DNA of 64,000 bases from an uncultured Planctomycetota bacterium. Lineage in GTDB: Bacteria; Planctomycetota; Planctomycetia; Isosphaerales; Isosphaeraceae. The DNA is taken from assembly GCA_963845755.1 (NCBI GenBank), contig CAWJTV010000040.1:1-64000 (forward strand). The letters run 5' to 3'. The notes under the pieces are model-generated. The model saw only the letters and a program-made list of their open reading frames with translations. It searched no databases and was not told where the DNA came from. Every line of letters starts with the position of its first letter. The first letter of the stretch is position 1. This document shows positions 45,545-64,000 of this stretch, piece after piece. The position numbers were made by a program, and so were the translations under genes.

Positions 45545-46940
45545 ATGAGCGTGGCCTCCCCATCGAAAGACAGACTTGTCCGACTTTCGCTCGACGCGAT
45601 CAAACCCGCTCCCGAAAACGAGCTGGTCTACCGGCCTGTGCGTACGGACGATCCCGAGATCAGAAACCTGGCGATCAGCATCCGGGATCACGGGCTCCAG
45701 GAGCCCATCGTCATCTCGCAGGACCACTTCATCCTGAGCGGACACCGGAGGCATGCCGCATGCCGCCTCGCGGGCCTGACCGAGATCCCGTGTCGCGTAG
45801 CGGAGATCAGCCGCTACGACCCCGAGTTCGAGACGATGCTGGTCGAGTTCAATCGTCAGCGCGTCAAGGACTTCGCCGAGATCGTGCGAGAGAAGGTTGT
45901 CACGCACAATCCTGACGATGCTTACCGGGCACTCAAGGCGCACCGAGAGGAGATGTCTGCCGTTAGTGGCGATTGCCTCAAGATCGATGGGACGAAGGAA
46001 CGCAAGCGGATCAGCAGCGCAAAAACGGCCCATGCTGGACGCCGCGATCAAGGTCATCGGCGCCCAGCAAAAATACTGGCCGCTCTCGGATCGGTCGATC
46101 CATTACAACCTGCTGAACTCTCCGCCGCTACGCCATGCCGGCAAGGCTGATTCCCACTATCGGAACAATATCGATTGTTACAAGGACCTGTGTGACCTGT
46201 TGACAAGGGCTCGACTTACGGGAGAGATCCCGTTCGCGGCCATCGCGGACCCAACGCGCCCCGTCGTGATATGGGATGTGTTTGCCGAGGTCGGCGGTTT
46301 CATCCACCGTGATTTGCAGCGTTTCCTCGGCGGATACCACCGGAATCTGCAACAGAGCCAGCCTGTACATATCGAAATCGTGGGCGAGAAGAACACGATC
46401 GCGGGCTCCATCAAGGGTATAGCGGCAGAGTATTGCATCCCCTACACGCTGGGACGTGGATACTCATCATTGGACCCACGGCACCGCCTCTACCAGCGAT
46501 TCAAGAAGAGCGGGAAGCATAAGCTGGTCCTCTTGATCCTGTCCGACTTCGATCCGGAGGGGGAGGATATTGCCCATTCGTTCGCGCGATCGATGCGGGA
46601 TGATTTCGGGGTGCAGAGCGTCCACGCCAAGAAGGTCTGCCTGACCCACGAGCAGGTCTTGGAGCGAAACATCCCCAAGACCTTCGACATCAAGAAGAGC
46701 ACCTCTCGTTATCGCAAGTTCGCGGCGAGGTATGGGGACCGCGCCCACGAGTTGGAGGCACTGTCGCCTCAAGAGAGGGCGCGTCTGCTGGAGGAGGCGA
46801 TCCTCGAGGTGATGGACGTTGAGGCATCCAACGCCGAGGTTGACGCCGAGGCGGAAGACGCGGCGAAGCTCCAGGGACTTCGGGAGGCAGTCGGTCCGCT
46901 CCTGATGAGTGTCCTCTCCGGCGAGGGAGGTCTCCGGTGA
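45545..46940 (+). CDS. ParB/Srx N-terminal domain joined to a Topo VI-A/Spo11-like Toprim domain, frameshifted
   Basis: SIRDHGLQEPIV...LSGHRR; IHY, RARL, VGEK, GRGYSS, SDFDPEG. Confidence 0.75.
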
Positions 46941-49587
46941 GCACCACCCAAACCGGACCAGACGGCATCCTCAAGGGACCTGGCCCCGCCCTGCGACGCA
47001 CGGTCGAGGCGCAAGCGAGAGAGGCCACACCCGGGCAGGCTCTCTCCAGATTGAAGTCGGCGACCTAGTCACCTGGACCGACCTCGACGGACGCGAGTGG
47101 CCTCCGAGGCGTGTTCGGGAAATCTACCCAGATCAGGGCTATTGCGTGATCGAAGGCTCCGATACGGGGTTGCCGATCGAGCAATGCGTGCTCGACATCC
47201 ACCTGGCGACCGCACTCAAGGCGCTTGCCGTAGAGCTCTCCCCGGCGCTGCCTACCGAAGATGGGCTCAAGAAGCCGGATGGACCCTGGAAGCGCTACCA
47301 GACCACTCCGGCGACCGAGGCCGAGGTCAGGAGTTGGTATCGATCCCGCCGAACCGGCAACGGGCTCGTCACGGGATATGGCAACCTGGAGTGCCTGGAG
47401 TTCGACGACCACCTAATCTATGAGCGATTCCGGGAGGCCGCGAACAAACTTGGCTTCGGTGACTTGATCACCCGGATCGAGACCGGATATTCCGAGGCGA
47501 CCCCGGGCGGCGGGATTCACTGGCTATATCGATGCGAGACGCTGGACGGCAACACCAAGTTGGCAGAGCGTCCGAACCCGACCGAGAAGGATCCGGACGG
47601 ACGCAAGCCCCTGATCGAGACACGCGGTATCGGCGGGTTCGTCGTGACGGCGCCGAGCAACGGCAAGGTGCACCCCAGCGGCGGGGCCTACAAGTTTCTC
47701 TCAGGCGGACTCGACTCCATCGCCACGATCTCGTCGGAGGAACGAGAGGCTCTCTTCCTGCTAGCCAGGACGTTTGACGAGATTCCGGATCCGGTGGAGG
47801 CGGAGCCGTCGCCGTGGGCGATGCAGGTCCCGCACAGCCATCCCACCCAGGGCGTTTCTCCGCTCGACGACTTCAAGGCTCGCGCGAGGCTGGCGGACAT
47901 TATCGAGCCGTTCGGGTGGCAGAAGGTCTTCACGAGTGGCGGGGTCGAATACTGCGCAGGCCCGACAAGGATCGAGGGTGGAGCGCCGACGTGGGGCAAA
48001 ACCAAGGGTTTTCGCGTCTTCACGTCATCGACGCCCCTCGAGGCCAAGAGCCTGTCGCTGCCGTATGTGTACTGCAAACTGAAGCACAACGGCGATTGGA
48101 AGGCATGCGTCAAGGACCTAGCACAACAGGGTTTCGGGACGTGGATCGACGATCAGGGCGAAGAAAAGCAGAATCCCGCCCCCTCGAGCTCGAGACGCAA
48201 CGGTCAGCATCAAGCCGGCAGCAAGGCGCAGGCGACGCCAGGCTCTAACCCGAAGCCGAGTCCCAACGGGACCGGACAAACGCTTGTCGTTTTGACAGAA
48301 CCCGACATCGAGGACGTCGAGATACTCGATCACTGGCCGCGGATCGACCCGAAAGCCTTCCATGGATTCGCGGGTGAGCTGGTCGCGATGGTCGAGCCGC
48401 ATACCGAGGCGGACCCGGTCGCGATCCTGATGCAATTCCTCGTGGGGTTCGGCAATGCGATCGGGCGGGAAGCTCACTTTTCTGTCGGGGCGACCCGCCA
48501 CTACCTCAATCTGTTCATCGCTTTGATCGGGGCAACGGCAGTCGGACGCAAGGGAACCTCGTGGGACATCATCTCGTGGTTCCTAGCCCTGGCGGATCTC
48601 GTCTGGGCGGCAGACAGGATTCAGGGCGGACTCGTGAGCGGCGAAGGGCTCATCTACCATGTCCGCGATGCCGTTTGGGAAGAACGAGAGACCAAGGACA
48701 AGAAAACCGGGACCACGACCAAGGATTTGGTATGCACGGACGCAGGGGTGGCGGACAAGCGGCTCCTCGTGGTCGAGACGGAAATGGGCCGAATGTTGAA
48801 AGCGATGAACCGCGAAACCAATACCCTCAGCGACGTCATCCGACAAGCATGGGATACTGGTCAGCTTCGGACTCTCGGTAAGCATGCCCCGGCAAAGGCG
48901 ACCAACGCCCATGTCTCCCTGGTCTGCCATGCGACCCAAGCTGACATCCGAAAGCACCTGACCGAGACGGATTCCGCCAACGGCTTCGCGAATCGTTTCT
49001 GGTGGATAAGCTCGCGCCGCTCCAAGGTCCTACCAGACGGCGGGGATCTGGGGGCGATCGAGTGGACGCCCATGCAAGAACGACTGATTCGAATAGTCGA
49101 GTTCGCCAGAGAGCCGAAGCGGCGGATGACCCGCGACACCAGGGCGTCCAAAGCCTGGCACGCGATCTACGAGGAATTGTCGTCTGGACGACCCGGGTTG
49201 GTCGGCAAGATCCTCAGCCGGGCCGAGGCGCAGGTCATGCGGGCGGCGTGCCTCTATGCACTGCTCGACATGGCCGATCAGGTCAGGATTCTCCATCTCG
49301 AGGCCGCGGTTGCGGCGTGGGAATTCAACGAAGCATCGACCCGATTGATCTTCGGAGAAGGAATGGGCGATCCCGACGCCGAGAAGCTCTTGAAGGGGCT
49401 GAAGGAGAATCCCCAGGGGCTAACCCGATCCCAGATCAACGCCGACATTTTTAAGCGTAACAAGAAGGCGAGCGAACTCGGGGCGCTCTTGTCTGACATG
49501 CTCACCCAAGGTCTCATCCATCGAAAAACCGACCAGAGCACAGGGGGTCGAGCGGCGGAGCGGTGGTACTTCGGGAGGGGCGTGTGA
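46909..49587 (+). CDS. Bifunctional primase-polymerase + DUF3987/helicase-like replication protein; start uncertain
   Basis: WKRYQ, LECLEFD, TPGGGIHW, ETRGIGGFVVTAPS; GRKGTSW, SGEGL, NGFANRF. Confidence 0.85.
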   Translation: MSSPAREVSGEHHPNRTRRHPQGTWPRPATHGRGASERGHTRAGSLQIEVGDLVTWTDLDGREWPPRRVREIYPDQGYCVIEGSDTGLPIEQCVLDIHLATALKALAVELSPALPTEDGLKKPDGPWKRYQTTPATEAEVRSWYRSRRTGNGLVTGYGNLECLEFDDHLIYERFREAANKLGFGDLITRIETGYSEATPGGGIHWLYRCETLDGNTKLAERPNPTEKDPDGRKPLIETRGIGGFVVTAPSNGKVHPSGGAYKFLSGGLDSIATISSEEREALFLLARTFDEIPDPVEAEPSPWAMQVPHSHPTQGVSPLDDFKARARLADIIEPFGWQKVFTSGGVEYCAGPTRIEGGAPTWGKTKGFRVFTSSTPLEAKSLSLPYVYCKLKHNGDWKACVKDLAQQGFGTWIDDQGEEKQNPAPSSSRRNGQHQAGSKAQATPGSNPKPSPNGTGQTLVVLTEPDIEDVEILDHWPRIDPKAFHGFAGELVAMVEPHTEADPVAILMQFLVGFGNAIGREAHFSVGATRHYLNLFIALIGATAVGRKGTSWDIISWFLALADLVWAADRIQGGLVSGEGLIYHVRDAVWEERETKDKKTGTTTKDLVCTDAGVADKRLLVVETEMGRMLKAMNRETNTLSDVIRQAWDTGQLRTLGKHAPAKATNAHVSLVCHATQADIRKHLTETDSANGFANRFWWISSRRSKVLPDGGDLGAIEWTPMQERLIRIVEFAREPKRRMTRDTRASKAWHAIYEELSSGRPGLVGKILSRAEAQVMRAACLYALLDMADQVRILHLEAAVAAWEFNEASTRLIFGEGMGDPDAEKLLKGLKENPQGLTRSQINADIFKRNKKASELGALLSDMLTQGLIHRKTDQSTGGRAAERWYFGRGV

Positions 49588-50164
49588 TGGGTTACGAAAG
49601 AAGTCTTCATCGTACGAAAAAAGTCCCCTCAGGCATGGTGTCTGCCCAGACTTCTTTCGTACGCCACGAAGTAAGTGGGACCGATCATCGAGATGGCGTC
49701 GTTTTCGATCACCAGGACGGCAGCGCGCTGCGGGTTGCGGAGGGTGTGGCGCGATGGGCGCGTACACCAGCACCACTCGGCACGTTGCGAAAAGCGCGGA
49801 GTCCATTCGAACCTGGAGTTGAGCGTGGCAAAGCCCGGAACGGACGAGCCGGCCAGGCGTTCGCGCTTGTTGAGTCCGGCGTGGTGGCCGGGGCCACCGC
49901 CAATTCCTCGCTGCGAACCGTCACGGGCCGCAAACAGGATGACCAGGCCGCCGAGACGAAGCCCCCCGCAGGAAGCTGCTCGCGGATTCTGGATCAGAGC
50001 CTGGAGCCAACGCGAGCCCGCCCTTCAAGGAACCGGCCGCTCGAGTGACCCAGCACGGTGGCTGGGTTGGCTCAAGGGTGGGCTGGACGATCCCCACCAC
50101 TCACGCCGAAACCACTCTCATCGCGTCGAACACCCGATCCGGACGTTGGCGTACCGCGATTTGG

Positions 50165-50935
50165 TCACTCGTCGGTCGAATCGGGATCTTTGTCTTTCAT
50201 GCGATAACTGTCTCCTTGAATCACGATCCCCTCCCCGTGATGCATCAGCCGGTCGATCAAGGCCGTGGCCAGGGTGTTGTCCACATCGAAGAGTTTGCCC
50301 CATTCCCGGAACGGTCGATTCGTGGTGATCACGATCGATCCCACTTCATAACGGGCGGCGACAACCTGGAACAACAAATCGGCCCCACGCTTGTCGATGG
50401 GCAGATAGCCCAGCTCATCAAGGAGGAGAAGACTGGGACGGACATAACTTCGGAGCGTTTTGCCCAGCGACCCATTGAGCTGGGCCGCGGTCAGATGATT
50501 GATCATGTCCACCACACGCGTATGGCGAACCGAATGGCCACGCTCAACGGCTGTGTAACCCAGTGCCGTGAGAAGATGGGACTTGCCCGTTCCGGTCGGC
50601 CCAATCAGAACGGCACAGCCGTGCTGCTCGATGAAGTCGCAGTCGAACAAGCGCACGATCGCGGCCTTGGGGATTCGCTTGGGGAACCTGAAGTCGTATT
50701 CAGCCAGGGTCTTTGGCTTGGGAAGCCGCGCCTCACGCAGCCGACGCTCCAGAGCTCGTTGCTCACGGGCGGCCTGTTCAGCCCCGATCAGGATCGCCAG
50801 AACTTCCAAGAAGGAGCTCCCTTTGCGAGCGGCTTCGTCGAGGACGTCGCGGTAGCTCTTGGCGATCTCTCACAGCTTCAATTCGGCCAGGTCGCGGTCG
50901 AGCCGTGCCTGGAGATTATCCTCACGCCGTGCCAT
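50165..50935 (-). CDS. istB: IS21 AAA+ helper ATPase, frameshifted near the 5' end
   Basis: GPTGTGKSHL, LLLLDELGY, ITTN, ALIDRLMHH, GDSYR. Confidence 0.93.
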
Positions 50936-52432
50936 CAGAGTCCTCGTCGCTGGTGTTACAGAAGCGGTCGTAAATGCCGGGATCCGTCGGTTCCAAATCG
51001 ATCTCGTCAATCAATTCGCGCCGTTTGGGAGTCGGCAGTGTGGGTGTGGGAAGCTGCCGGCGCCGCCGCTCCGCCAGGAGAAGGTTCTCGACGTAGGCCG
51101 CGTCATAGGCCGCCAGCTCCAGGGCCCGGGCGATGGCCGAGACCACCTCGGCCGTGCCGTAGACGCGCGCCAGACCCAGCAAGCGTCGCAGATGGACCCC
51201 CGTCTGCACCGGCTGGCGGTTCAGGCCGAGGTGGAACTGCCGAGCCTCGGGGCCGAGGGCATCAAAGGCCTGTTCCAGCGCCGAGCTCGGCGACCGCCGG
51301 CCCATACTCAGTGCCGCGGTGCGGTGCTCGGGCAGCACGATCAGTTGCCGGCGCCCGTAGCAGCGGGAATGCCGGGCCACGACTTGGCCCTGGTGCACGA
51401 TGCCGACTTCCTGACCGTCGGCGCGAATCGTGACCGTCTGCCGCGCCAGGTGCGGCGGCACCGAGTAACGGTTCGCATCGAACTTGACCCGCGCATGGGG
51501 ACTGGCAACCGCCAGCACGATCTCGGCGGTGTCAAACGGGATCGTGGGAAGTGCGCGGAGCCGCGATCGCTCGTGATGAAACCGGTCTACCGGGCGTTCT
51601 CGAGTCGTCTCATGAATCCGGACGTTGGCAATCTCGTCGCGCCACCGGGGTGCCAGCGCGAGGTAGTCCTCGAAGCGGACGAGCTCGTCGCTGCGACCGG
51701 CCAGGGCGTTTCGTTTCACGTAGCGCACGCCCCCTTCGACAATCCCCTGGGATTCCGGATCGCGCCGTTGGCAGGCGATCGGCTGCAAGTAGTAGTGGCC
51801 GCAGAGCGCCAGGAACTCGGGATGGAAGCAGGCCGCGCGGCCGGAGCCATTGATCACGGCCGCTTTCAAGTTGTCGAAGATGATGGCACGGGGACTGCCA
51901 CCAAAGAACTCCAGGGCGTGCACCAGGCCGCGATAGAATTCCGCCTTGCGCTGCGAGAGGGTGAATTCGATGTAGGTCATCCGGCTGTAGCAGAGGACGG
52001 CCACCAAGACCGAGACCTTGCGGGTCGTGGTCCCGAGTTGGACGTGGCCGCATTCGCCCCAGTCGACCTGCATGGCCTGAGCCGGTTCGTAGTGGACTTC
52101 TTGATAGACGCGACCGCGCGGGGCGAAGGGACCGCACGTAGCGGCGGACGGTAATCACGCTGCCGGTGTAGCCATTGGGACCGCGAGCGATCTCCTCGTG
52201 GACGCGCACCGCCGACAGCTCGGGATACTGGGCCAGCAGGGCGTCGATCTTGGACTTGTAGGGGTCCAAGGAACTGACACGGCAGGGGTCGCGGTGAGTG
52301 GGAGGCTGCTGCAACTGGAGGCGCTCGAGCGACCGTGCGGCAGGAACAGTGAAGTCGCCCGGCGATGGCCCGAGCGGAGAGGTTCTCGATCTCGGCCAGG
52401 CGACGAATCTCGGCCCACAAGGCCACCTTCAT
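50922..52432 (-). CDS. istA: IS21 DDE transposase, frameshifted
   Basis: N-terminal HTH, LDPYK, QVDWG, FDNLK, GIVEGGV, RIHETT, NRYSVP. Confidence 0.92.
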
Positions 52433-52842
52433 GGCTGACTCCTTTCCTTGTCAAGAGGTGTCGACGCGATAGCCTGGCGCAGGATATCGCCCAGTTGCAT
52501 CAGCCCGCCGCCGGGCTCGGATCTGCGGCGTTGACAGCGCGGAGGCAAGGAAAGGACCTGGGTTAACGGCGGTTCGTAGGCGATCAGGTCGTAGGCCAAA
52601 AGCTCGTCACGGGCCTGGAGCAAGCTGGGCAGGGGGATGCGCAACCGAGCGGCCAGGGTGCCATCGCTGTAGAAGGACAGGCCGTTGACATCGGCCACGG
52701 CTGACAGAAAGAAGTACAACAGCACGGCCTCGCGTGAGAGCTGGTCCATGTGCTCGCGCACGAAGCGACCGTCGAGCCAGGACCAACCGGTTGCGGGAGG
52801 CCGCCGCAGTCGGTGGGGAACCAGAATGCGCTTGGGTATCAT
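52429..52842 (-). CDS. IS-borne wHTH-like accessory protein, translationally coupled to istA
   Basis: WSWLD, LLYFFL.AVAD..GLSFY, ARDEL...DLIA, QVLSL; homolog at 60906-61315. Confidence 0.75.
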   Translation of the reverse strand: MIPKRILVPHRLRRPPATGWSWLDGRFVREHMDQLSREAVLLYFFLSAVADVNGLSFYSDGTLAARLRIPLPSLLQARDELLAYDLIAYEPPLTQVLSLPPRCQRRRSEPGGGLMQLGDILRQAIASTPLDKERSQP

Positions 52843-52939
52843 GCTGGGGCTCCTGGGGGTGAACAACAGGATGCCCAGGCTAAAGCAGTCTGCCGGTACC
52901 ACGCGATAATTGACGACCGGCGCCTTGGGGGAAGGGTCG

Positions 52940-53517
52940 TCATAGCGGCGGTGACCGGGGTGGCCGATCGGTGGTGTCTTGCTGACACCGGGATCGATTG
53001 CGGTGTGCGGCCTGGTATTCGATGGCGCGCTTGTTCCGGCCATCCAAGGTGCCGCGAGCGAGCCACTTACGTTCGCGGTCCCGGACGTTGCGAACGGCCT
53101 GACGGCAGGCGGTGCCGCAGTAGCGAGCCGGGTTGCGCGATGAGTTCACCGGGGGTTGGTAGCAGCCAGGCCGATCGCAGAAGGGGTGGGGGAAAAATTT
53201 TCTGCTGCGTGACCACGCGCAGGCGCAACGTCCGGGTTCTCAATAGCTTTGGGCGTGGCTTTGGCTTGCTGGCGGCGCTGTTTCTCGGCCTGGGCATGCT
53301 GGGCTTTGGCGCGGGCGTCTTGGCGGCGTTTTGCCTGGCGGCGAGCCGCTTGCCAACGGCGGACTTCCCGCAGGCATTCCGGGTCCTGGCAGTAGCGCTG
53401 GTTCCAGCATCGCGGCTGGTACTTGCGTCGGCAACCTTTGCGCAGGCAGATCCGTGGGCGCGGTCGGCGGCCTCTGGGCAGACGGCGGTATCGTTTCGTA
53501 ACGTGAGGAGTGCCCAC
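52940..53517 (-). CDS. IS-borne basic protein with two Cys4 Zn modules joined by a -1 frameshift
   Basis: CLRKGC...YCQDPEC, then CDRPGC...YCGTAC; homolog at 60231-60810. Confidence 0.7.
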
Positions 53518-53622
53518 GGGAGCGGCTACTCTCGAGGGAAAAGCTCGGGGAGAATGTTGATCGCGTTCTCCTCGAGCGCTATTCCAACGCAGACCCGACG
53601 CTGACATGCCAGTATATCGTCT

Positions 53623-53777
53623 TCTCGAGAACAAGGACGGCAAGACAAACGGTCAGAAGTGCCGCGCTGGGAACCAGACGAAGGCGCTGCCGTTGAAGCG
53701 ATCGCCCTCTCGAGAACGAGAACGGAGAGACAAACGGTCAGAAGTGCCGCGCTGGGAACCAGACGAAGGCGCTGCCG
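53623..53777. repeat. 85-bp-period direct repeat inside the IS21 copy A end
   Basis: tctcgagaac...agacaaacggtcagaagtgccgcgctgggaaccagacgaaggcgctgccg occurs twice (53623, 53708). Confidence 0.85.
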
Positions 53778-53819
53778 GTCCAATGATCGAAAGCGCTGCC
53801 GAATCAAAGATCGGTCCCA

Positions 53820-54046
53820 CCGGATTGGCTTCCGCCTTCGAGATGGTGACCAGACGGCTGTTGACGCCGGTCCCGCTGGCCTTGAAGGCGTCGGGTGGTA
53901 GCTGCTCCGATTCTCCTCCGACCTCATCGAGCCAGTCGCGGAATCCCTGGTCAGCCCAACGGAAGAACGGCCCCTCGCTCATGATGGCGACCAGCCGGCC
54001 GCCCGGCTTGAGCATCCCGTAGGCGTGCTGGACCTGGGCTACGTCT
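53820..54046 (-). pseudogene. C-terminal remnant of a class I SAM-dependent (DNA) methyltransferase
   Basis: HAYGMLKPGGRLVAIMS...LPPDAFKASGTGV. Confidence 0.65.
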
Positions 54047-54175
54047 GCGGAAGTACCCGTTCACACCCTGGTCAACAGTTGTAAGATACCTGGTTTTCAG
54101 GCATCAGGAAATATCAATGCTAGTCTATGTGACATTCGGCATCGAAACCGCCGATTACCCCGTCGGAACGCGATG

Positions 54176-54479
54176 ACTCGTTCCCACGCTCCGCGTGGGA
54201 ATGCCGTCTGCGACGCTCGGCGTCGTCCTCTTCGAAGTCAGGCCTCCGAGAATCCTTGGGACCGACGCGATGATGAGCCAGAAGTTGAGCGCCATCTCCG
54301 AGAACCCGCTGGAGCGGGGCTCCCCTTCGATCCGACGCCTGGGAGATCCTCCGACGCCCGCAACCCTGCCGAGACGGAGTCCTGGGTTTCGGTGACAACC
54401 GACGGGTCACTGGAAATCCAAGACGAAGACGACGCGGAGCGTCGCAGACGGCATTCCCACGCCGAGCGTGGGAACGAGT
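54176..54479. repeat. REP/REPIN-like element: two inverted ~55-bp units, each with an internal hairpin
   Basis: ACTCGTTCCCACGCTCCGCGTGGGAATGCCGTCTGCGACGCTC... and its reverse complement ending at 54479. Confidence 0.8.
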
Positions 54480-54628
54480 GATAATCTCGGAAAATTGTCA
54501 ACCGAGGTGTGAACGCGTACACCGGTTAAACGAGCGCAACAAAGTCTGCAAATGCAGATCTGATCAACTTTCCTGGAAAGGCCAGTCTTGATTAGAACCC
54601 GGCCACCGGACTTGCTCATGAGGCGGCC

Positions 54629-55033
54629 CTAGATACTGAGACCCAGATAATCACAAAGGAGGTCCCGATTGCACAAGTGGTTGGCGACCCAGTCCAGTTG
54701 ACTGTCGGTGAGGCCGTGGCGTCGGGCAACCTGCCGAAAGCGCCGGTTGATTTCAGCGTGCGCAAGGTCCAGGTCCCGCCTTTTGCGACCAAAACCATAA
54801 CCGGAAAAGACCTCTGGTCCCTCATCCCAGATATCCAGGGCTGCCCGCCACGCAACGTCCGTGGGTATCGAGGCGGGTATCTTCGGAAAGGCGACTCGGG
54901 GCCGAAGCTTCTGACCCTCGGGCTTCGCGACGGACTTCGAGTGCTTTGGTTCCCCGGCCGGGGGATCTGAACCGCGCACCGAGTGCCGAGTCTGGCACGG
55001 CAACAAAGCCAAGAGCACCATCACGTGATACAT
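54629..55033 (-). CDS. Secreted hypothetical protein
   Basis: Signal-peptide-like N-terminus. Confidence 0.4.
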   Translation of the reverse strand: MYHVMVLLALLPCQTRHSVRGSDPPAGEPKHSKSVAKPEGQKLRPRVAFPKIPASIPTDVAWRAALDIWDEGPEVFSGYGFGRKRRDLDLAHAEINRRFRQVARRHGLTDSQLDWVANHLCNRDLLCDYLGLSI

Positions 55034-55462
55034 GGCTACTTGTCACAGTTGCATGTCAAGAAATCTGCCCTTACGCTTCCATGCCCGCTGATTCGACGTT
55101 GGCAATGTGCCACAGGATTCTAAACACGGTGCCGGGACTGCTGGGCAGTCTCATTCTTCCCGAAAACATACGAGAGTACCCAGCCAAGTGGCAGGGGGAG
55201 ATAGGCGGGTTTCTCGGGTCTCCATGTTCCGTCGAGCCGCACCGTGAGTTTTGATCGCTCTCCCGAGAACCCTATCCGATGCACCGCTATGAGGAACCTG
55301 GGTGCGATGGAAGCATCGGGCTCGGACAGACGTGAGAAGCCAACTAGGCAGCTTCATAGAGCACCTCCTTTCACGCAAGAGTGAGGTGATGCCACGCCGC
55401 CAATCATCTATTCGATACCCGGGGACGAGTACTAAGAAATAGGCCCGCGGTTAAACGGCCGG

Positions 55463-55562
55463 ATGAAAATCGCCACCTACAACGTCAACTGAATCGGAGC
55501 GAGGCTGCCGGTGCTCCAGAAGTGCCTCGCGTCCTCGAAGCCGGATGTCGCCTGCCTTCAAT
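55463..55562 (+). pseudogene. xth: 5' remnant of exodeoxyribonuclease III
   Basis: MKIATYNVN*IGARLPVL...PDVACLQ with an internal stop. Confidence 0.7.
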
Positions 55563-55887
55563 GTCTCACTTTGGGATCTAAAATCCCGCGCCTCCCAGGC
55601 GACCACTTCCAGTACGTCGAAGTGAGCTTGGCCGGTCGCACCGGCTGAGGATTTCGGTGGTCATCGAGCGGGCGAAGGAGCTTGCATCTTGGCCTTCTCC
55701 GGGTCCCATATCAGTCGGACTTCGAGCCGACTGTCGAACCCACCCGCTTCCAGCCGGTGGTCTTTCAGTTCCATCCGTGTCCCACCGCTTGTAGCACAGA
55801 CTTCCGAGGATATCATTGGTTAGCCTCAGCAGTCGCTACGTTGGGTGTCCCCCGTATTTTAGTTGGCACAAAGCGAGGAGCGAATGG

Positions 55888-56751
55888 ATGGCATTCAAGA
55901 CGAACTGCATCGCCGTTCTCGTCGCCTGTCTCGGCGTGTCTTCCGCGTTCGCTCAGGAGACAACGCCACGATTCAAGGTAATCGCTTTCTATACCGGGAA
56001 GGCCGATGCTGCGCACATTAGCTTCGTGAAGGAAGCGAAGTCGTGGTTTGCCCGGATGGCCGCCGAGCACCACTTCTCGTTCGAGTCCACGCAAAACTGG
56101 GACGACCTGAACCGGGGGTTTCTCGCGTCGTACCAGGTGGTCGTGTTTCTGGACACGCGACCGGACTCGCCACGCCAGCGCGAAGCGTTCCAGGAATACA
56201 TGAAGAACGGCGGCGCCTGGATGGGCTTTCACTTCTCCGCTTTCGCGCTCACTCCTTCGAAATACCCGCAGAACTGGGACTGGTATCACAACGAGTTCCT
56301 GGGCTCCGGCATGTACGTCGGGAACACATGGAGACCCACCTCGGCGATCCTGCGGGTGGAGGACACCCAGCATCCCGCGACCGTCGGATTGCCGGCCACT
56401 TTCCAGAGTGCCCCCAACGAATGGTACAAGTGGTCCAAGGATCTGAGAACTAGCCCGAATATCCGGATCCTGGCCTCGATCGATCCGGCCAGCTTCCCCC
56501 TGGGCACCGGGCCGAAGAAGCACGAGATCTGGCATGACGGATACTATCCCGTGGTCTGGACGAACCAGAAATACCGTATGATCTACTTCAACATGGGCCA
56601 TAACGACATGGACTATGAAACCAAACCCAGCAAGGAGTTGTCCTCCTCGTTCGCCAACGAAGTGCAAGACCGAATGATTCTCAATGCGCTGGAATGGCTG
56701 GGCACGGGGGAGAAGCCCCGAAGTCCCGGCGGCAAGCAGCCCGGCAAGTGA
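55888..56751 (+). CDS. Secreted ThuA-like (class I GATase-fold) protein
   Basis: Signal peptide; GGAWMGFH, NEWY, PVVWTN, YFNMGH. Confidence 0.85.
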   Translation: MAFKTNCIAVLVACLGVSSAFAQETTPRFKVIAFYTGKADAAHISFVKEAKSWFARMAAEHHFSFESTQNWDDLNRGFLASYQVVVFLDTRPDSPRQREAFQEYMKNGGAWMGFHFSAFALTPSKYPQNWDWYHNEFLGSGMYVGNTWRPTSAILRVEDTQHPATVGLPATFQSAPNEWYKWSKDLRTSPNIRILASIDPASFPLGTGPKKHEIWHDGYYPVVWTNQKYRMIYFNMGHNDMDYETKPSKELSSSFANEVQDRMILNALEWLGTGEKPRSPGGKQPGK

Positions 56752-57246
56752 AGCACACGTAAGGTGTGTAATATCCCGTCCTATCTCCGCAGTGCCCCGG
56801 AACGTCATCCCCACGATCATAACGAAGGTCAACCACGAGAAGACTGCCACGATTCGTGGGATCGAACGCAAGGTCATCGCGAGAGATTCTCGGGCCGTCC
56901 AGCTTTCGGCAGACGCATTCAAGACAACCGGGGGGGCACTCAGGTTTTCACTAGAGCATCGGCGCCGGGAGGTCGCGTCGCTCGCGGCTTATCACGTGTC
57001 CAAGGCGAGGGCCGGTGCGATCATTCGCCCGGGCAGCGTCGGCGCGAAGGTGACCTACGTCGATCCCGATGGGAAAGTCATGACAATGGACGACGTGGGG
57101 GTGGCTACCTGGCACGAGGCGCTCGCGGAGAAATACCGTCCTGCCGCCCACTACCCCTGACCCCCGGTCGAGCCGGACCCGCCGGAACCGTGAACGGCGA
57201 TCTTGGGTTGAGACCTTCCAGCCAAACGTCGTCGAGATCCCGACCA

Positions 57247-57525
57247 ATGGAACAGCAACGTCCCCGCTGGCGATTCCGCATCAGCACGCTGATGTTCCTC
57301 GTCATCAGCCTGGCCCTGGCTCTCGCCTTGGTCATCGAGCGTCGGCGGATGGAGCGGGAGTTGTATCGAGCCCGAGCGGAAGTCGCGGTGACCCGAGCAG
57401 AGACCGCGGCGTCCCGAGAGGAATCTGCGAGGTTGATTGCGAAATTACAGAAGGCCCTGGATGCGTCCCGGGAGGCTCTGGCGAAGGCCCAACGAACAAA
57501 GGCCCAGTCCGAAGCAGAAAAATGA
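57247..57525 (+). CDS. Planctomycete-type small membrane coiled-coil protein
   Basis: RWRFRISTLMFLV + TM segment + coiled coil. Confidence 0.6.
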   Translation: MEQQRPRWRFRISTLMFLVISLALALALVIERRRMERELYRARAEVAVTRAETAASREESARLIAKLQKALDASREALAKAQRTKAQSEAEK

Positions 57526-57579
57526 GCATCCCGAGGCGGCTATGGCGCCGCTGGCGTGGCGATCGACCCGAGGGCCGGC

Positions 57580-59270
57580 TCATCCATCGACCGAGGCCGG
57601 CGACACGCCAGGAGACGAGACGGCTCCCCCTTCCGAGGCCCGCAGGTCTCTGAGTAAGCGATCAAAGGCTTTCTGATAGGCGTCGTGATCCTTCCAACCA
57701 TTGAAATCGCCGATGTGCCGAGTCCGTTTGATGTGCGTGGCCCAGGCGACCGGGGTTTCCAGGATCGCATCGTCGAGCCGGATCGGGAAGAGGATCGTCC
57801 GGTTCTCCCGGTGTTCCCGCTCCAAGGCCGTTTCAACTTCGGTCTCGACCCAATTGCTCGCGATGGAGTGTTCCGAGAGAACGAGCATGAGCTTGTCGTG
57901 GACCCGGATTGCCTGATCGATCTGATGGCGGAACTTGTCACCGATCTTGAGATCCTCGTGGTCGAGCCAACAGCGTACACCCTTGGCCTGGAGATCCGCA
58001 TGGAGGCGTTCGGCGAAGTCCCGGTTCTTGGAGCTGTAACTGATGAAGCACGAATAGAACTGAATCGGACTCATCGAGCTAATCAGGCTGGGGGCGTAGG
58101 CAATGAGTACATTAGGTAGGCCACAGCCTCGCAGGAATGCATCGGGGATATTTCCTTTGGAGCGAACGAGAGTATCGGTACTTATCGAGCTAGCCTGGAT
58201 TCCCATGGAGGCAAAAACGGGGTAGGCTACGACGCAATCCATAAACGAAGCAAAATTCGTCGAAGTGGGTTTTCCCCTGGATTTCAAGTGGTTCTGGCTT
58301 GAAACGGCTCATCGAAACGCCTCTCTCGATGTTAGGTGATCCGTAAACTGAAAAAAGAGCATCCACGGTGTCAACTCAATGCATCCACTGTGGTGAATTC
58401 GATAGATTTGTCGCAAGAACCCCTTGTTTTCCAGGAGGAAGTGAGATTCGATCGACGAACATATCATCCATGGTGATCAAGTTAACTTAGTGGGAGACCC
58501 ACCTTTAACTCTTGGAGGAGCATAACCAGTTCCGAGGCGAAAAGCTGAGTATCGCGGGCTTTTTTCCAATCATGCGGCAACAAATGTTAGCCCAATCTGC
58601 CTCCATGGGAATCCAGGCTAGGAGCCATGTGGTCGATTGAATCGAGACCGTTGACTTCGGATAGATCCACATTTGCGATGATTGTATCATTGAAGATGGA
58701 CTTCGTGAGAAAAGCTCGATGCAGACTGGCTGAGAGGATACTTGCACCAGTGAGATCGGCCGCGCTCAAGTTCGCTCCATCAAGCTTGGCCCATCGAAGG
58801 TTCGCAAACTTGAGACTAGCCCCGCTGAGGTTGGCCTCGCGCAGATTCGCCCCACTGAGATCGGCTCCGCTGAGATCCGCCTTGGCGAGATCACTCATCG
58901 AAAGCTGCGCCCGGCTGAGATTGGTCTCACTGAGATCAGCCCCTCTTATATCTGCGTTGGAGAGTATAGTCTCGAAAAGGATGGCATCCAGAAATGTGCC
59001 GTCGCTGAGGTTGGCTCTGCTGAGAGTGGCTCCGCTGAGGTTAGCTCGAATCAGATCTACATTTCGGAGATCGGCTCCGCGGAGATCGACATTTCGGAGA
59101 TTGGATTCGCTGAGACTTGCGTCGTGGAAATCGACTTTCGTAAGCTTGGCATCACGAAGACACGCGCGGTCGAGGAGTGGTATCTCTTCACCAGATTCAC
59201 GACGTTGATTCCATTCGGCGATTCCTTCCGGTCCGCCTTTGAGCAATCTAAGCGCCTCATCGCGATCCAT
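57580..59270 (-). pseudogene. Pentapeptide-repeat + TIR-domain protein interrupted by a MITE
   Basis: A(N/D)LxG repeats; FYSCFISYS...DLQAKGVRCW...WVETEVETAL...LFPIRLD; removing 58193-58620 restores HMAPSSISTDTL in frame. Confidence 0.9.
58193..58618. mobile_element. 426-bp non-autonomous MITE with 21-bp perfect TIRs and a TA duplication
   Basis: TA|GCCTGGATTCCCATGGAGGCA ... TGCCTCCATGGGAATCCAGGC|TA. Confidence 0.9.
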
Positions 59271-59461
59271 GGCCCTGCTCCCCCCTTGATGCAAGTCTCG
59301 GATCAAGCGGACAATTAAGACTCTATCTGAGGGGGGAACCGGACGTCCATGACCGAGCGGGTCCTCAACGGCGATAAGACCCGGGGATTGCCGCGCGGGA
59401 CGAACTCGCGGATAATTTCCATTCTTCCAGCCCTTGATTTCCTGCCTGGAAACAGCCCGCA

Positions 59462-60001
59462 ATGCACCCCCGCCGCGCCTTCCGTGCCCTTCTGATGCTG
59501 ACCCTCGTCTCTCTGATGACCGCCGCGGCCGCCTCCCCGGCATGGGCCTGGGGGAGGTTGGGTCATCGCGTGATTGCCAGGCTGGCCGAACATCACCTGA
59601 CCGATCGGGCGAAGCAAGAGATCAAGGCCCTGCTGGAGCCGGGAGAGTTGCTGGCCGACTGCTCGACGTGGGCCGACGAGGTCCGGGGGAGGATGAGGAA
59701 GTCTGCCCCTTGGCACTACATCGACATCCCTTTAGATGAGCTTAAGTACGATGACAAGTGGGCCGCGGACGACTCCCGCCATGGTTCCATTGTCCCGAAG
59801 ATCCGGGAGTTCCTGAACGTCCTTGGGAACCCGGACGCCCCGGTCGCGGAACGCCGCCCTGCGCTCCGTTTCGTCGTGCATCTGGTCGAGGACCTCCACC
59901 AGCCTTGCCACGTCGGGGACAACCACGACCGCGGCGGGAACGATACCCAAGTCCGTTGGTTCTCCCGCGGGTCCAACATGCACCGGGTGTGGGACACCTG
60001 A
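59462..60001 (+). pseudogene. S1/P1 nuclease truncated by IS21 copy B
   Basis: AWGRLGH, WHY, HLVEDLHQPCH, MHRVWDT, then the IS end supplies TGA. Confidence 0.88.
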
Positions 60002-60230
60002 TACCGATCGGGAAATCAGAGCCATCTTCGATCGTCTGGAGGGAGCCACCCGAGCTGTCGTCGATCCTGGCCTCTCCTTCTGAAGCGCATGTCTCAGACC
60101 GTTTCATCTTTTGTCTTGTTCTCAACAAGGCGATAGACTCACAAATCAGCGTCTCCTTCGCCTTTTGATCACGCTCGAGGAGGATGGTAGGGCATCCTCC
60201 TCGAGCTTTCCCTTGGGAGCAGTACCTCCC

Positions 60231-60810
60231 GTGGGCGCCGGTCAGGGTACGCCAAAGCACGGCACTTCGGCCAGAGGGCGCCGACTGCGCCCGCGGATTT
60301 GTTTCCGCAAGGGGTGTGGACGCAAGTATCAGCCCCGCCGCTGGAACCAGCGCCACTGCCAGGACCCGCAATGTCAGCGGGAGGTCCACCGCTGGCAGGC
60401 AGTGCGCCGGCAAGCCCGACATCGCCAGCACGCCCAGGCCAGAGCCCAGCATGCCCAGGCGGAAAAAGTGCGCCGTCAGCGAGCGAAGTCTGCGTCCCAG
60501 ACCATTGAGAGCTCAGAAGTTACGCCGGCGCGTGGTCACGCAGCAGAAGATTTTTTTCTCCGCCGTTATGCGATCGGCCGGGCTGCCATGAGCACCCCGT
60601 GAGCTCGCCCCGCAACCCCGCCCGCTACTGCGGCCCTGCCTGCCGGCAGGCCGTTCGCAATGTCCAGGACCGGGAACGCAAGTGGCTTTCCCGCGGCACC
60701 TCGGATGGGCGGAAGAAGCGCGCGATCGAGTACCAGGCCGCACGAAGCGCCGCATCGTTCGATCAGGCCATCTCACCAACTCGGCACCATCGCGACCACC
60801 TCCCCAATGA
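60231..60810 (+). CDS. IS-borne double Zn-module protein (-1 frameshift)
   Basis: CFRKGC...HCQDPQC; CDRPGC...YCGPAC; conserved GTG start with GGGAG upstream. Confidence 0.7.
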
Positions 60811-60905
60811 CGGTCCTCCCCAGGCGGCGCCGGTCGTCACTTATCGCGTGGCCATCCGCCGCGCTGGTTTGCTGGAGCCGGTGGTTTTCCCTCAGGAGTT
60901 CCAGC

Positions 60906-61315
60906 ATGCCTGCGACACCCATCCTCGTCCCCGCGACTGCGGCGTCCCCCCCAGACCGGTTGGTCCTGGGTTGACCGTCGCTTCGTGCGCGAGCACGCCT
61001 GCGCACCTCTCCCGCGACGCCGTGCTGCTGTACTTCACCCTCTGTGCCGTGGCCGACAAGCACGGGTTGTCGTTCTATGGCGACGCCACCATGGCCGCCA
61101 TGGTGCGGATGAACTTGCCGGCCCTGATGGCCGCCCGTGAGGAATTGCTCGCCCGCGATCTCATCGCCCATGAGACGCGTTTCACTCAGGTGCTCTCCCT
61201 GCCGCCAGCCGGCCAACGCCGCGGTGAGTCCGGCGGAGGACTGATGTCTCTGGGCGAGATCTTGCGCCAGGCCGCCGCACTCCCTCAGCTCGACGACGAA
61301 AGGAGCCTGCCATGA
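60906..61315 (+). CDS. IS-borne wHTH-like accessory protein, frameshifted
   Basis: LLYFTLCAVADKHGLSFY...AREELLARDLIA...QVLSL. Confidence 0.72.
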
Positions 61316-62821
61316 ACGTCGGTTTGTGGGCGGAGATCCGCCGCCTGGCCGAGATCGACAAGCTCTCCACCCGGGCCATTGCGCGACGACTCCACTGCGC
61401 CCGGCGGACCGTGACCGCGGCCCTCCAGCGGGATCATCCCTCGGCGCCCCCCCGCGCACGCCGCGCCAGTCTTTTGGACCCGTACAAGGCCAAGATCAAC
61501 GCCTTGGTGGAAAAGTGTCCCGAACTCTCGGCGGTGCGAATCCGCGAGGAGATCGCCCGCGGGCCCGACGGTTATACCGGCAGTACGATCCTCGTGCGTC
61601 GCTATCTCCGGACCATCCGCCCGGCTCGCGGACGGATCTACCAGGAGGTCCATTACGAGCCGGCCCAGGCCATGCAGGTGGACTGGGGCGAGTGCGGTCA
61701 CGTCCAACTCGGGACCACGACCCGCAAGGTCTCGGTCTTCGTGGCCGTGCTCTGCTACAGCCGCCTGATGTTCATCGAGTTCACGCTGTCGCATGCAAGG
61801 CCGAGTTCTATCGCGGCGTGGTGCACGCCCTGGAGTTCTTCGGCGGCAGTCCCCGCGCCCTGATCGTCGACAACTTGAAAGCCGCCGTCCTCAACGGCTC
61901 GGGCCGCACCGCCTGTTTCCATCCCGAGTTCCTGGCGCTGTGCGGTCACTTCTGCCTGCAGCCGATCGCTTGCGAACGACGCGACCCGGAATCCAAAGGG
62001 ATCGTCGAGGGGGCCGTGCGCTACGTCAAGCACAACGCCTTGGCCGGCCGTGGGGCGGAGCTGACGGGCTTCGAGGACTACCTGGCTCTGGCACCACTGT
62101 GGCGTGACCAGGTGGCCAACGTGCGGCTCCATGAGACGACCAAAGAGCGGCCGGTCGATCGCTTCCTGCGTGAGCGCCCGCGGCTGCGCCCGTTGCCGGC
62201 GATCCCGTTGGACACCGACGAGGTCGTGGCCGCGGTCGTCAGTCCCCATGCGCGGGTCGAGTTCGACGGCAACCGCTATTCGACACCGCCGAAGTTCGCT
62301 CGCCGGGCGGTCACGATCCGCGCCGACCGCGACGCGGTCCGCGTCCTCCACGAGGGTCAGGTGCTGACCCAGCATGTCCGTTGCTACCAGCGGGGACAGT
62401 TGATGGTCCGGCCGGACCATCGCACTGCCCGCTGGCCCTGGGCCGTCGGGCTCGGAGCACCGCGCTGGAACAGACGTTTGACGCGTTGGGGCCCGAGGCA
62501 CGCCAGTTCCACCTCGGCCTGCGGCGTCAGCCGATCAAGACCGGCGTTCACCTGCGTCGCTTACTCGGCCTGGCCCAACTCTACGGGGCCACCGAACTGC
62601 TCTCAGCCATCGCGGAGGCCCTGGAACTGGCGATCTACGATGCTGCGGCGGTCGAGAACCTCCTGTTGGCCCAACGGCGACGGCGGCAACTCCCGACCCC
62701 CACGTTGCCCACGCCCCGGCGGCGCGAATTGATCGATGAGATCGAACTGGAACCGGCCGATCCCAGCTTCTACGATCGCTTCTGCACTCACACCGCGGAG
62801 GACGCTCATGGCACGACGTGA
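61312..62821 (+). CDS. istA: IS21 DDE transposase, frameshifted
   Basis: QVDWG, DNLK, KGIVE, RLHETT, NRYS. Confidence 0.92.
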
Positions 62822-63577
62822 GGACAATCTCCAGACCCGATTGGACCGCGATCTGGCCGAATTGAAGTTGCCCGAGATCGCCAAAGCCTACCGCGAAGTG
62901 CTGGATGACGCCGGCGCAAGGGGAGCTCGATGCTGGAAGTCCTGGCGACTCTGATCGGCCTGGAGCAAGCCGCCCGTCAGCAACGCGCCCTCCAGCGGCG
63001 GCTGTGCGAGGCCCGGCTGCCCAAGTTGAAAACCCTGGCCGAATATGATTTCACCTTTCCCAAGCGGATTCCCAAGGCAACGATCCTGCGGTTGTTCGAC
63101 TGCGACTTCATCCCCCGCCATGGCTTCGCCGTGCTGATCGGCCCGACCGGAACCGGAAAGTCGCATCTCCTCACGGCGTTGGGTTACACGGCGGCCGAGC
63201 GCGGCTACTCGGTCCGCCATACACGGGTCGTGGACATGATCAATCATCTCACCACGGCCCAGATCAACGGTCTGCTGGGCAAGGTGCTGAAGACCTACGT
63301 CCGTCCCAGTCTGCTCCTGCTCGATGAGCTGGGCTATCTGCCCATCGACAAGCGCGGGGCCGATCTGTTGTTCCAGGTGGTCGCGGCCCGTTATGAATCC
63401 GGATCGATCGTCCTATCGACGAATCGACCCTTCCGGGAATGGGGCGCCCTGTTCGACGTGGACAACACCCTGGCCACGGCCTTGATCGACCGGCTGATGC
63501 ATCACGGGGAGGCACTGGTGATTCAAGGAGATAGCTATCGGATGAGAGACAAAGATTCTGATTCGACCAGCGCGTGA
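62808..63577 (+). CDS. istB: IS21 helper ATPase, frameshifted near the 5' end
   Basis: GPTGTGKSHL, DELGY, DRLMHH, GDSYR. Confidence 0.93.
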
Positions 63578-64000
63578 ATCAGCGCGGCGCGTCCACGTCC
63601 GGAGCGGGTATTCCCCGCGAAGTGAGCATCCTTTGGCGTTAGTGACCGGGATGTCCAGCCCACCCTTGAGCCAGCCCGGCGATCCTGCCGGGCTGTTGGT
63701 TCAAGCGGCCGGTTCCTTGAACAGCGGGCTCGCGTCGGCCCCAGGCCCTGGTCCAGGATCCGCCAGCAGCTCCAAGTAGGGGCTTCGTCTTGGCGACCTG
63801 GTCATCCTGTGGTGGCCCGCGGCGGTCCACGGCGAGTGAATTGGCGGTGGTCCCGTCCCCAACGTCGGACTCACGGAGCAGGAACGCCTGGCCGGTCCGT
63901 CCGCGTCTCGCGACGTCACGACACAGATTGAGACCGACCTCACTCCTCGCATTTGACCGCGTGCCGAGCGGCGTGGCCGCATGCGCCGATCGTCTTGGAC
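63578..64000. ncRNA. Candidate structured RNA downstream of istB (homolog at ~49730-50164)
   Basis: Colinear similarity between the two IS copies with frame-breaking indels and compensatory stem changes. Confidence 0.45.

Follow-up and report, generated by a model that had tools for sequence, protein, structure and literature searches.

Structured RNAs are encoded by several kinds of transposon, such as the bridge RNA of IS110, the omega RNA and reRNA of IS200/605, and HEARO, and IS21 serves as a structural model for transposase–ATPase systems. PMC11208146 and PMC10293859 describe IS21 as a two-protein element without a selector. The 64,000-nucleotide stretch analysed here (the window; contig CAWJTV010000040.1, positions 1 to 64,000), from the 14.3-Mb, 64% GC genome of an uncultured Isosphaeraceae planctomycete, carries two IS21-type elements, A and B, in which istA and istB are preceded by a gene for a zinc-finger (Zn) protein and one for a winged helix–turn–helix (wHTH) protein, and followed by a structured tail. 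The archetype of the family holds IstA and IstB only, and the two further conserved genes inside the ends thus make these elements a variant of IS21. A preliminary description of the window had taken the additional proteins and the 3′ region for dedicated parts of the element. This is very probably correct: the genes are almost always linked, translationally coupled and under purifying selection, and the tail keeps a constant length and covaries out of sample. The analysis shows computationally that the four-gene operon moves as a unit into unrelated sites with duplications of 5–7 bp. A literature search, with most subscription papers outside its reach, found no paper on the four-gene architecture; the two extra genes and the folded tail suggest an undescribed layer of control on transposition.

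A four-gene operon inside IS21-type ends

Element A spans 49676..53819 on the minus strand (4144 bp), as first described, with TG...CA ends and imperfect inverted-repeat (IR) arms, here measured at 52 nt and 75% identity; its left terminal repeat, with the TG end and internal repeats, lies at 53769..53819 and its right one, with the CA end, at 49676..49726. Element B starts at 59999 on the plus strand, again as first placed, and runs through 64000 to an end located at C40:64069, 69 bp past the 64-kb window (4071 bp in all). The two lie in opposite orientations and are indeed diverged copies, with 76% identity across ~3.8 kb and a common order of Cys-rich (Zn) open reading frame (ORF), wHTH gene, istA, istB and a tail of 489 and 492 bp, respectively. 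The wHTH gene (A, 52429..52842, −, encoding 137 aa; B, 60906..61315, +) is coupled to istA (A, 50922..52432, −; B, 61312..62821, +) by the reported ATGA overlap of stop and start in both elements. IstA carries rve and Mu-transpos_C_2 domains and reaches 163.6 bits with NF033546 for its main fragment (cut-off 160). The AAA+ helper IstB, encoded directly downstream (A, 50165..50935, −; B, 62808..63577, +), matches PF01695 (IstB_IS21) and scores 246.4 bits with NF038214 (cut-off 200).

Sister copies occur elsewhere in the genome, the A type on contig C24 (99.95% identity) and the B type on C39 (99.4%). Three of the four copies are flanked by target duplications (5 bp for the C24 copy, 5 bp for B and 6 bp for the C39 copy), and the window copy of A has none. 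Element B sits inside an S1/P1 nuclease gene, whose 5′ part occupies 59462..59998 (+) and whose frame picks up again beyond the element. The istA frame is broken in all four copies, with two breaks each in A and B, one of A's being common to C24, and both A-type copies have an in-frame TGA near codon 22 of istB. Relatives have an intact IstA of 493–504 aa in 40 cases, and none of 38 IstB N-termini read has the early TGA. The lesions of B are not alike between its two copies, the wHTH frame and the 5′ part of istB being broken in the window and intact on C39, and may be long-read errors. The broken frames and the shared istB stop suggest that the own-genome copies may be inactive or partly mis-sequenced.

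The wHTH family comprises 3146 clusters at 90% identity and 1138 at 50%, from several phyla. Neighbourhoods were scored for the best 80 stretches of each kind, out of at least 572 from genomes and at least 554 from metagenomes; both sets lean to close relatives of the queries, and counts are over loci with enough flank. The istA gene lies directly 3′ of the wHTH gene at every scorable locus (79/79 genome, 73/73 metagenome), istB is present at 62/64 and 37/37, and a Zn gene lies 5′ of the wHTH gene at 72/73 and 68/69. All four genes stand together at 57/60 and 35/36 loci, respectively, and an NTGA overlap of wHTH stop and istA start was found at 154 of 156 loci. Median pairwise dN/dS is 0.30 for the first Zn finger, 0.19 for the second, 0.27 for wHTH, and 0.18 for both IstA and IstB, values that indicate, at the level of sequence, purifying selection on the accessory genes.

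An IstB tree resolves two clades (support 100/99 and 100/100). Clade 1, the widespread sister clade (Desulfobacterota, Betaproteobacteria, Nitrospirota and others), has elements of about 3.4 kb with a single Zn finger and a tail of about 60–125 bp. Clade 2, to which the window belongs, has elements of 4.06–4.23 kb with a tail of 487–491 bp; the long 3′ region described earlier is thus conserved within clade 2, but its long form is specific to that clade. Intact multi-copy elements are present in cultured environmental strains, namely Caballeronia SBC1/SBC2 and Desulfopila IMCC35008, and a clade-1 element lies on one viral contig; six viral pattern matches had no profile support. In one Caballeronia locus (L022:1168-7753), the element interrupts a gene that has a tyrosine integrase on one side and a TniQ-family gene on the other, and so seems to have inserted into another transposon.

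Altogether, 39 distinct duplicated sites were collected, with duplications of 5 bp at 30, 6 bp at 6 and 7 bp at 3, and identical copies were found in unrelated sites.

The double-finger gene and the folded tail of clade 2

The single "Zn-module gene" of the preliminary description is a real Cys-rich ORF, but it actually holds two Cys4 modules that are read in different frames, with an offset of −1. In element A, the short form of orf1 (53146..53517, −), from a conserved, putative GTG start, encodes a Cys4 finger and an Arg-rich helix; a slippery A/T run (53191..53201, −) marks the −1 shift point into the second Cys4 module (52940..53179, −), which has no start codon of its own. In element B, the first finger (60231..60602, +) contains a T-run slip site at 60549-60558, and the second finger follows in the −1 frame from 60569. 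Among 50 distinct clade-2 loci with both finger motifs, the second finger is shifted by −1 against the first in 37, by +1 in 7 and not at all in 6. A T-run of 5–9 precedes it in 34 of 34 cases, and no ATG or GTG occurs within 40 codons in 33 of 34, while its dN/dS is 0.19. The conserved slip site and the selected overlapping frame without its own start point to programmed −1 recoding, which would yield a short one-finger protein and a fused two-finger protein. In other planctomycete variants (L187, L188, L189, L196, L356), the wHTH gene is likewise preceded by two Zn-finger frames that overlap.

The Cys4 finger followed by an Arg-rich helix is weakly CGNR-like, with weak, below-cut-off zf-CGNR matches in 5 of 54 members and two weak matches to PDB sequences. 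Fold searches with the predicted model (pLDDT 71, pTM 0.39) gave no significant match (best Z 4.1, Foldseek E>4). The nearest clusters in the ESM Atlas are mostly unnamed.

A protein-coding tail was rejected, as scattered 1-nt indels leave no common frame over 26 sequences. On the istB strand, an alignment of 23 sequences instead gives a rod of ~330 nt that bears a side hairpin, together with two small hairpins (A, 49759..50155, −, the rod with its side hairpin at about 49837-50155; B, 63586..63990, +). The sense strand reaches −139.8 kcal/mol against −86.9 for the antisense strand, and the antisense fold was rejected on this ground. In the alignment, 96.7% of cells are paired, and two-sided changes occur in 24 of 119 pairs, compared with 10.6 in shuffled alignments (0 of 500 as high) and 4–9 when the structure is slid. 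The excess of GU over AC in the pairs (357 vs 33) fixes the strand as that of istB. In 12 held-out autonomous copies, 183 of 254 changed pairs are kept, i.e., 72% against the 37% expected for single random changes. The single-sequence fold z-scores are modest (−2.98 and −2.27).

The Rfam covariance-model search returned two chance matches (E 0.62–0.66), neither within the tails. A covariance model of the tail, R1, had 8 matches in the own genome; a further 150 genomes of the class gave no match, and 63 loci of clade 1 or more distant types gave no significant one. However, a DNA search with the tail gave a match in 22 of 101 family genomes, suggesting that short-read assemblies probably drop the tail. 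In four metatranscriptome runs, contigs of relatives only were found, one of which runs from the istB end into the tail; strand, level and ends are not readable from these contigs, and DNA may be present. An antisense match of the tail to the element's own body was no better than in controls. The tail is a putative new class of structured RNA.

A second, diverged tail type (56–62% identity, 7–12 two-sided changes) with another right end was seen in L245:3990-4339 (reverse), L248, L299 and L300. Two loci of the own genome (L200 on C3 and L201 on C4) each hold a close tail copy and a second one that is ~60% diverged. Between them lie genes recognized by eye as an ECF sigma factor and signal peptidase I, without istAB; these are worn cargo-bearing derivatives.

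Readings of the accessory layer

The preliminary description had offered "a regulation or target-selection module" as the function of the extra parts. Regulation is plausible. Internal to the left IR, A has four 9-bp repeats 42–43 bp apart (53629..53764, −), including an 85-bp duplication of two units, and B has three about 38–42 bp apart (60071..60159, +); over 23 leaders, 37 of 55 intervals measure 38–45 bp. Derivatives that have lost the transposase retain the first 110–245 bp (13 of 14 aligned at the left end). After these repeats and before the first ribosome-binding site comes a conserved hairpin with a U-tract (A, 53537..53577, −, immediately 5′ of the orf1 site; B, 60173..60211, +, ahead of orf1), which is terminator- or attenuator-like in appearance, and the repeats themselves are candidate wHTH sites. 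The wHTH model (pLDDT 85) has as its top VIA match 4pta, the N-terminal initiator domain of plasmid RepA (Z 8.3, rmsd 2.8, 85 aligned), with DnaB/DnaD N-domains close behind. HTH_36 matches 19 of 69 members, and a sequence search of the PDB gave nothing at E<=1.

The preferred reading, which has about an even chance of being right, is that binding of the wHTH protein to the phased repeats, in concert with the Zn protein, controls the operon or helps to assemble the ends, the RNA being a clade-specific post-transcriptional part. The wHTH protein, with its RepA_N/DnaD initiator fold, would bind the ~40-bp-phased repeats inside the left end and, together with the Zn protein, autoregulate the operon and/or act as an enhancer for end pairing, for which plasmid iterons and the Mu enhancer are analogies. 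Translational coupling would link the wHTH level to that of IstA. The rod would be an RNA that closes the operon transcript on its 3′ side, where it would decide the fate of the mRNA or serve as a binding site for the Arg-rich Zn protein, and IstA and IstB would perform chemistry and target capture as in ordinary IS21.

Several observations weigh against this proposal. Canonical IS21 needs only IstA and IstB, according to PMC11208146. The leader repeats are short and degenerate, and their motif is not the same in clade 1, whose leaders have a different, pyrimidine-rich repeat pattern. Unrelated wHTH folds commonly reach Z scores close to 8.3, and those of CRP-type regulators are nearly as high; thus, the match assigns a fold and not a function. 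As for the tail, relatedness among the sequences inflates the shuffle test and is not removed by the shuffle and slide controls, and covariation cannot separate RNA from single-stranded DNA. In addition, 32 istA-less copies keep 472 of 910 changed pairs (52%), some near the neutral level. Finally, clade 1 has no long tail, so that the four-gene core can dispense with the RNA.

An alternative that is unlikely but survives best is a replication helper, in which replication would be recruited by the wHTH protein and by the structured right end, acting either as single-stranded DNA or as a primer-like RNA, to resolve a copy-out intermediate into a circle. Replication initiators are the best fold matches of the wHTH protein, which also has a weak PHROG match to a replication initiation protein (E 0.011), and a copy-out/paste-in route is proposed for IS21 in PMC11208146. 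The tail is often found in transposase-less derivatives of 1.1–3.5 kb in which both ends are preserved, and target duplications flank four of these. All 14 two-ended elements that are not full length contain the tail in part or in whole, with similarity beginning exactly at its 5′ edge in three cases; among 15 pattern-found left ends, 12 are linked to a tail and 3 stand alone. This persistence favours a role of the tail in cis, an argument that ascertainment and decay weaken. The derivatives stem from few founding deletions and were mostly found via the tail. Many of them show decay of the pairing, with four additional broken pairs common to two copies from separate loci, and the sister clade has no such tail.

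Somewhat less probable still is a ribonucleoprotein of the rod, the frameshifted double-finger protein and the wHTH protein that would license or position the IstA–IstB transpososome. If true, the element would be a DDE/AAA+ insertion sequence with an RNA component, and this would be the first non-CRISPR RNA cofactor and the first dedicated accessory module for the simplest member of the Mu/Tn7/IS21 superfamily. Complex prediction for clade-1 IstB with the Zn and wHTH proteins, run without controls, scored 0.00, which is evidence neither way.

Equally doubtful is a portable cassette that serves any host element from outside the IS21 machine, with the RNA as a separate clade-specific acquisition, a reading that overlaps with the preferred one. 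Among 22 distant wHTH loci, the Zn and wHTH genes stand ahead of tyrosine recombinases in one (L184:4305-7909) and a wHTH gene ahead of an IS110 transposase in another (L357:4953-6728); three have no transposase in the available DNA. Seven distant loci carry an added ParB-like gene, and gene order varies; five-gene variants with this gene beside istA are L190, L191, L192, L198, L199, L356 and L358. Cassette-bearing IstBs also occupy several deep branches. However, 17 of the 22 loci still adjoin istA/istB-type genes, the single cases are possibly chance neighbours, and the tree contained only one cassette-less IstB type.

Target selection, the other half of the earlier suggestion, is unsupported and decidedly improbable. 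Here the Zn and wHTH proteins, possibly joined by the RNA, would together replace TniQ as a split adaptor that directs IstB to particular DNA. A Zn finger and a wHTH next to a TnsB/TnsC-like pair is the expected anatomy, and according to PMC10293859 no target selector has been reported for IS21. The 39 duplicated sites, however, share no site or motif apart from a faint A-left/T-right bias among those of clade 2. They give no sign of a dedicated att site or of guided targeting. The orientation relative to long ORFs is not biased either (11 same, 6 opposite and 19 none at 36 scorable sites). These tests covered site, motif and orientation, and a structure-based preference, e.g., for forks or mobile DNA, would lie outside them. 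The longest exact match of a tail to its own flank averages 8.2 nt against 8.0 for the flanks of other elements (n=16), a comparison that split guides of 4–5 nt would escape. The accessory proteins have no TniQ/TnsD match in Pfam or NCBIfam and none is listed in the fold searches, by which homology is not excluded. The lack of a shared motif and of an own-flank excess fits ordinary IS21 behaviour, with the weak target specificity described in PMC11208146, and argues against a TniQ-like or guided selector.

That the extras are passenger cargo without a role in transposition, the tail folding by chance in GC-rich DNA, is hardly credible: canonical IS21 functions without them and the single-sequence z-scores are modest, but linkage, coupling, purifying selection, the constant 487–491 bp tail and the out-of-sample covariation all stand against it.

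Surroundings and described systems

The right end of A lies 88 bp from the stop of an 892-aa Prim-Pol + DUF3987 primase gene (46909-49587, +), and a methyltransferase-like fragment, recognized by eye, lies at its other end; with no target duplication, A may mark a rearrangement inside another mobile element. At 54053-54482 is a MITE- or REP-like repeat of ~370 bp with 61-bp inverted arms, present in several genome copies, with a ~50-bp core in dozens. The pentapeptide-repeat and TIR_2 ORFs at 57580-59543 (−) are separated by a ~430-bp segment bounded by perfect 24-bp inverted repeats (58190-58213, 58598-58621), and are probably one TIR–pentapeptide gene split by a small element.

With more than 1000 wHTH clusters at 50% identity in several phyla, this lineage adds two obligatory-looking proteins to IS21, and one of its clades further adds a putatively recoded protein and a large folded RNA-like element. 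It offers a compact, testable system for how accessory factors joined transposase–ATPase transposons.

The elements agree with the IS21 family (IS21, IS5376) in that the IstA and IstB models score above cut-off, the TG...CA ends contain internal repeats, most duplications are 5 bp long and target specificity is weak. They differ in the two extra coupled genes, the phased leader repeats and a length of 3.4–4.2 kb, and in clade 2 also in the frameshifted double finger and the structured 3′ tail. Tn7-like elements (TniQ/TnsD, TnsF, CAST) likewise combine a DDE transposase and an AAA+ helper with Zn-binding and helix–turn–helix accessory proteins, whereas here no TniQ/TnsD homology, att site, cas genes or TnsA were found, and the accessory proteins are small and separate. 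CGNR and other treble-clef zinc fingers have the same Cx2-4C...YCx3-4C arrangement followed by a basic helix, but the Zn protein has no ABATE domain and no significant fold match. Plasmid RepA_N/DnaD initiators with iterons, and the Mu repressor with its enhancer, also set a winged-helix fold beside phased short repeats inside an end, although in this case the wHTH protein has no PDB sequence match, and both origin function and binding are hypothetical. Like the bridge, omega, reRNA and HEARO RNAs, the RNA-like tail is a large, conserved and folded part of an insertion sequence. It differs from them in that it has no Rfam match, no nuclease or recombinase partner and, by the exact-match test (n=16), no variable guide matching targets; it lies toward the right end of an element whose transposase is of the DDE type.

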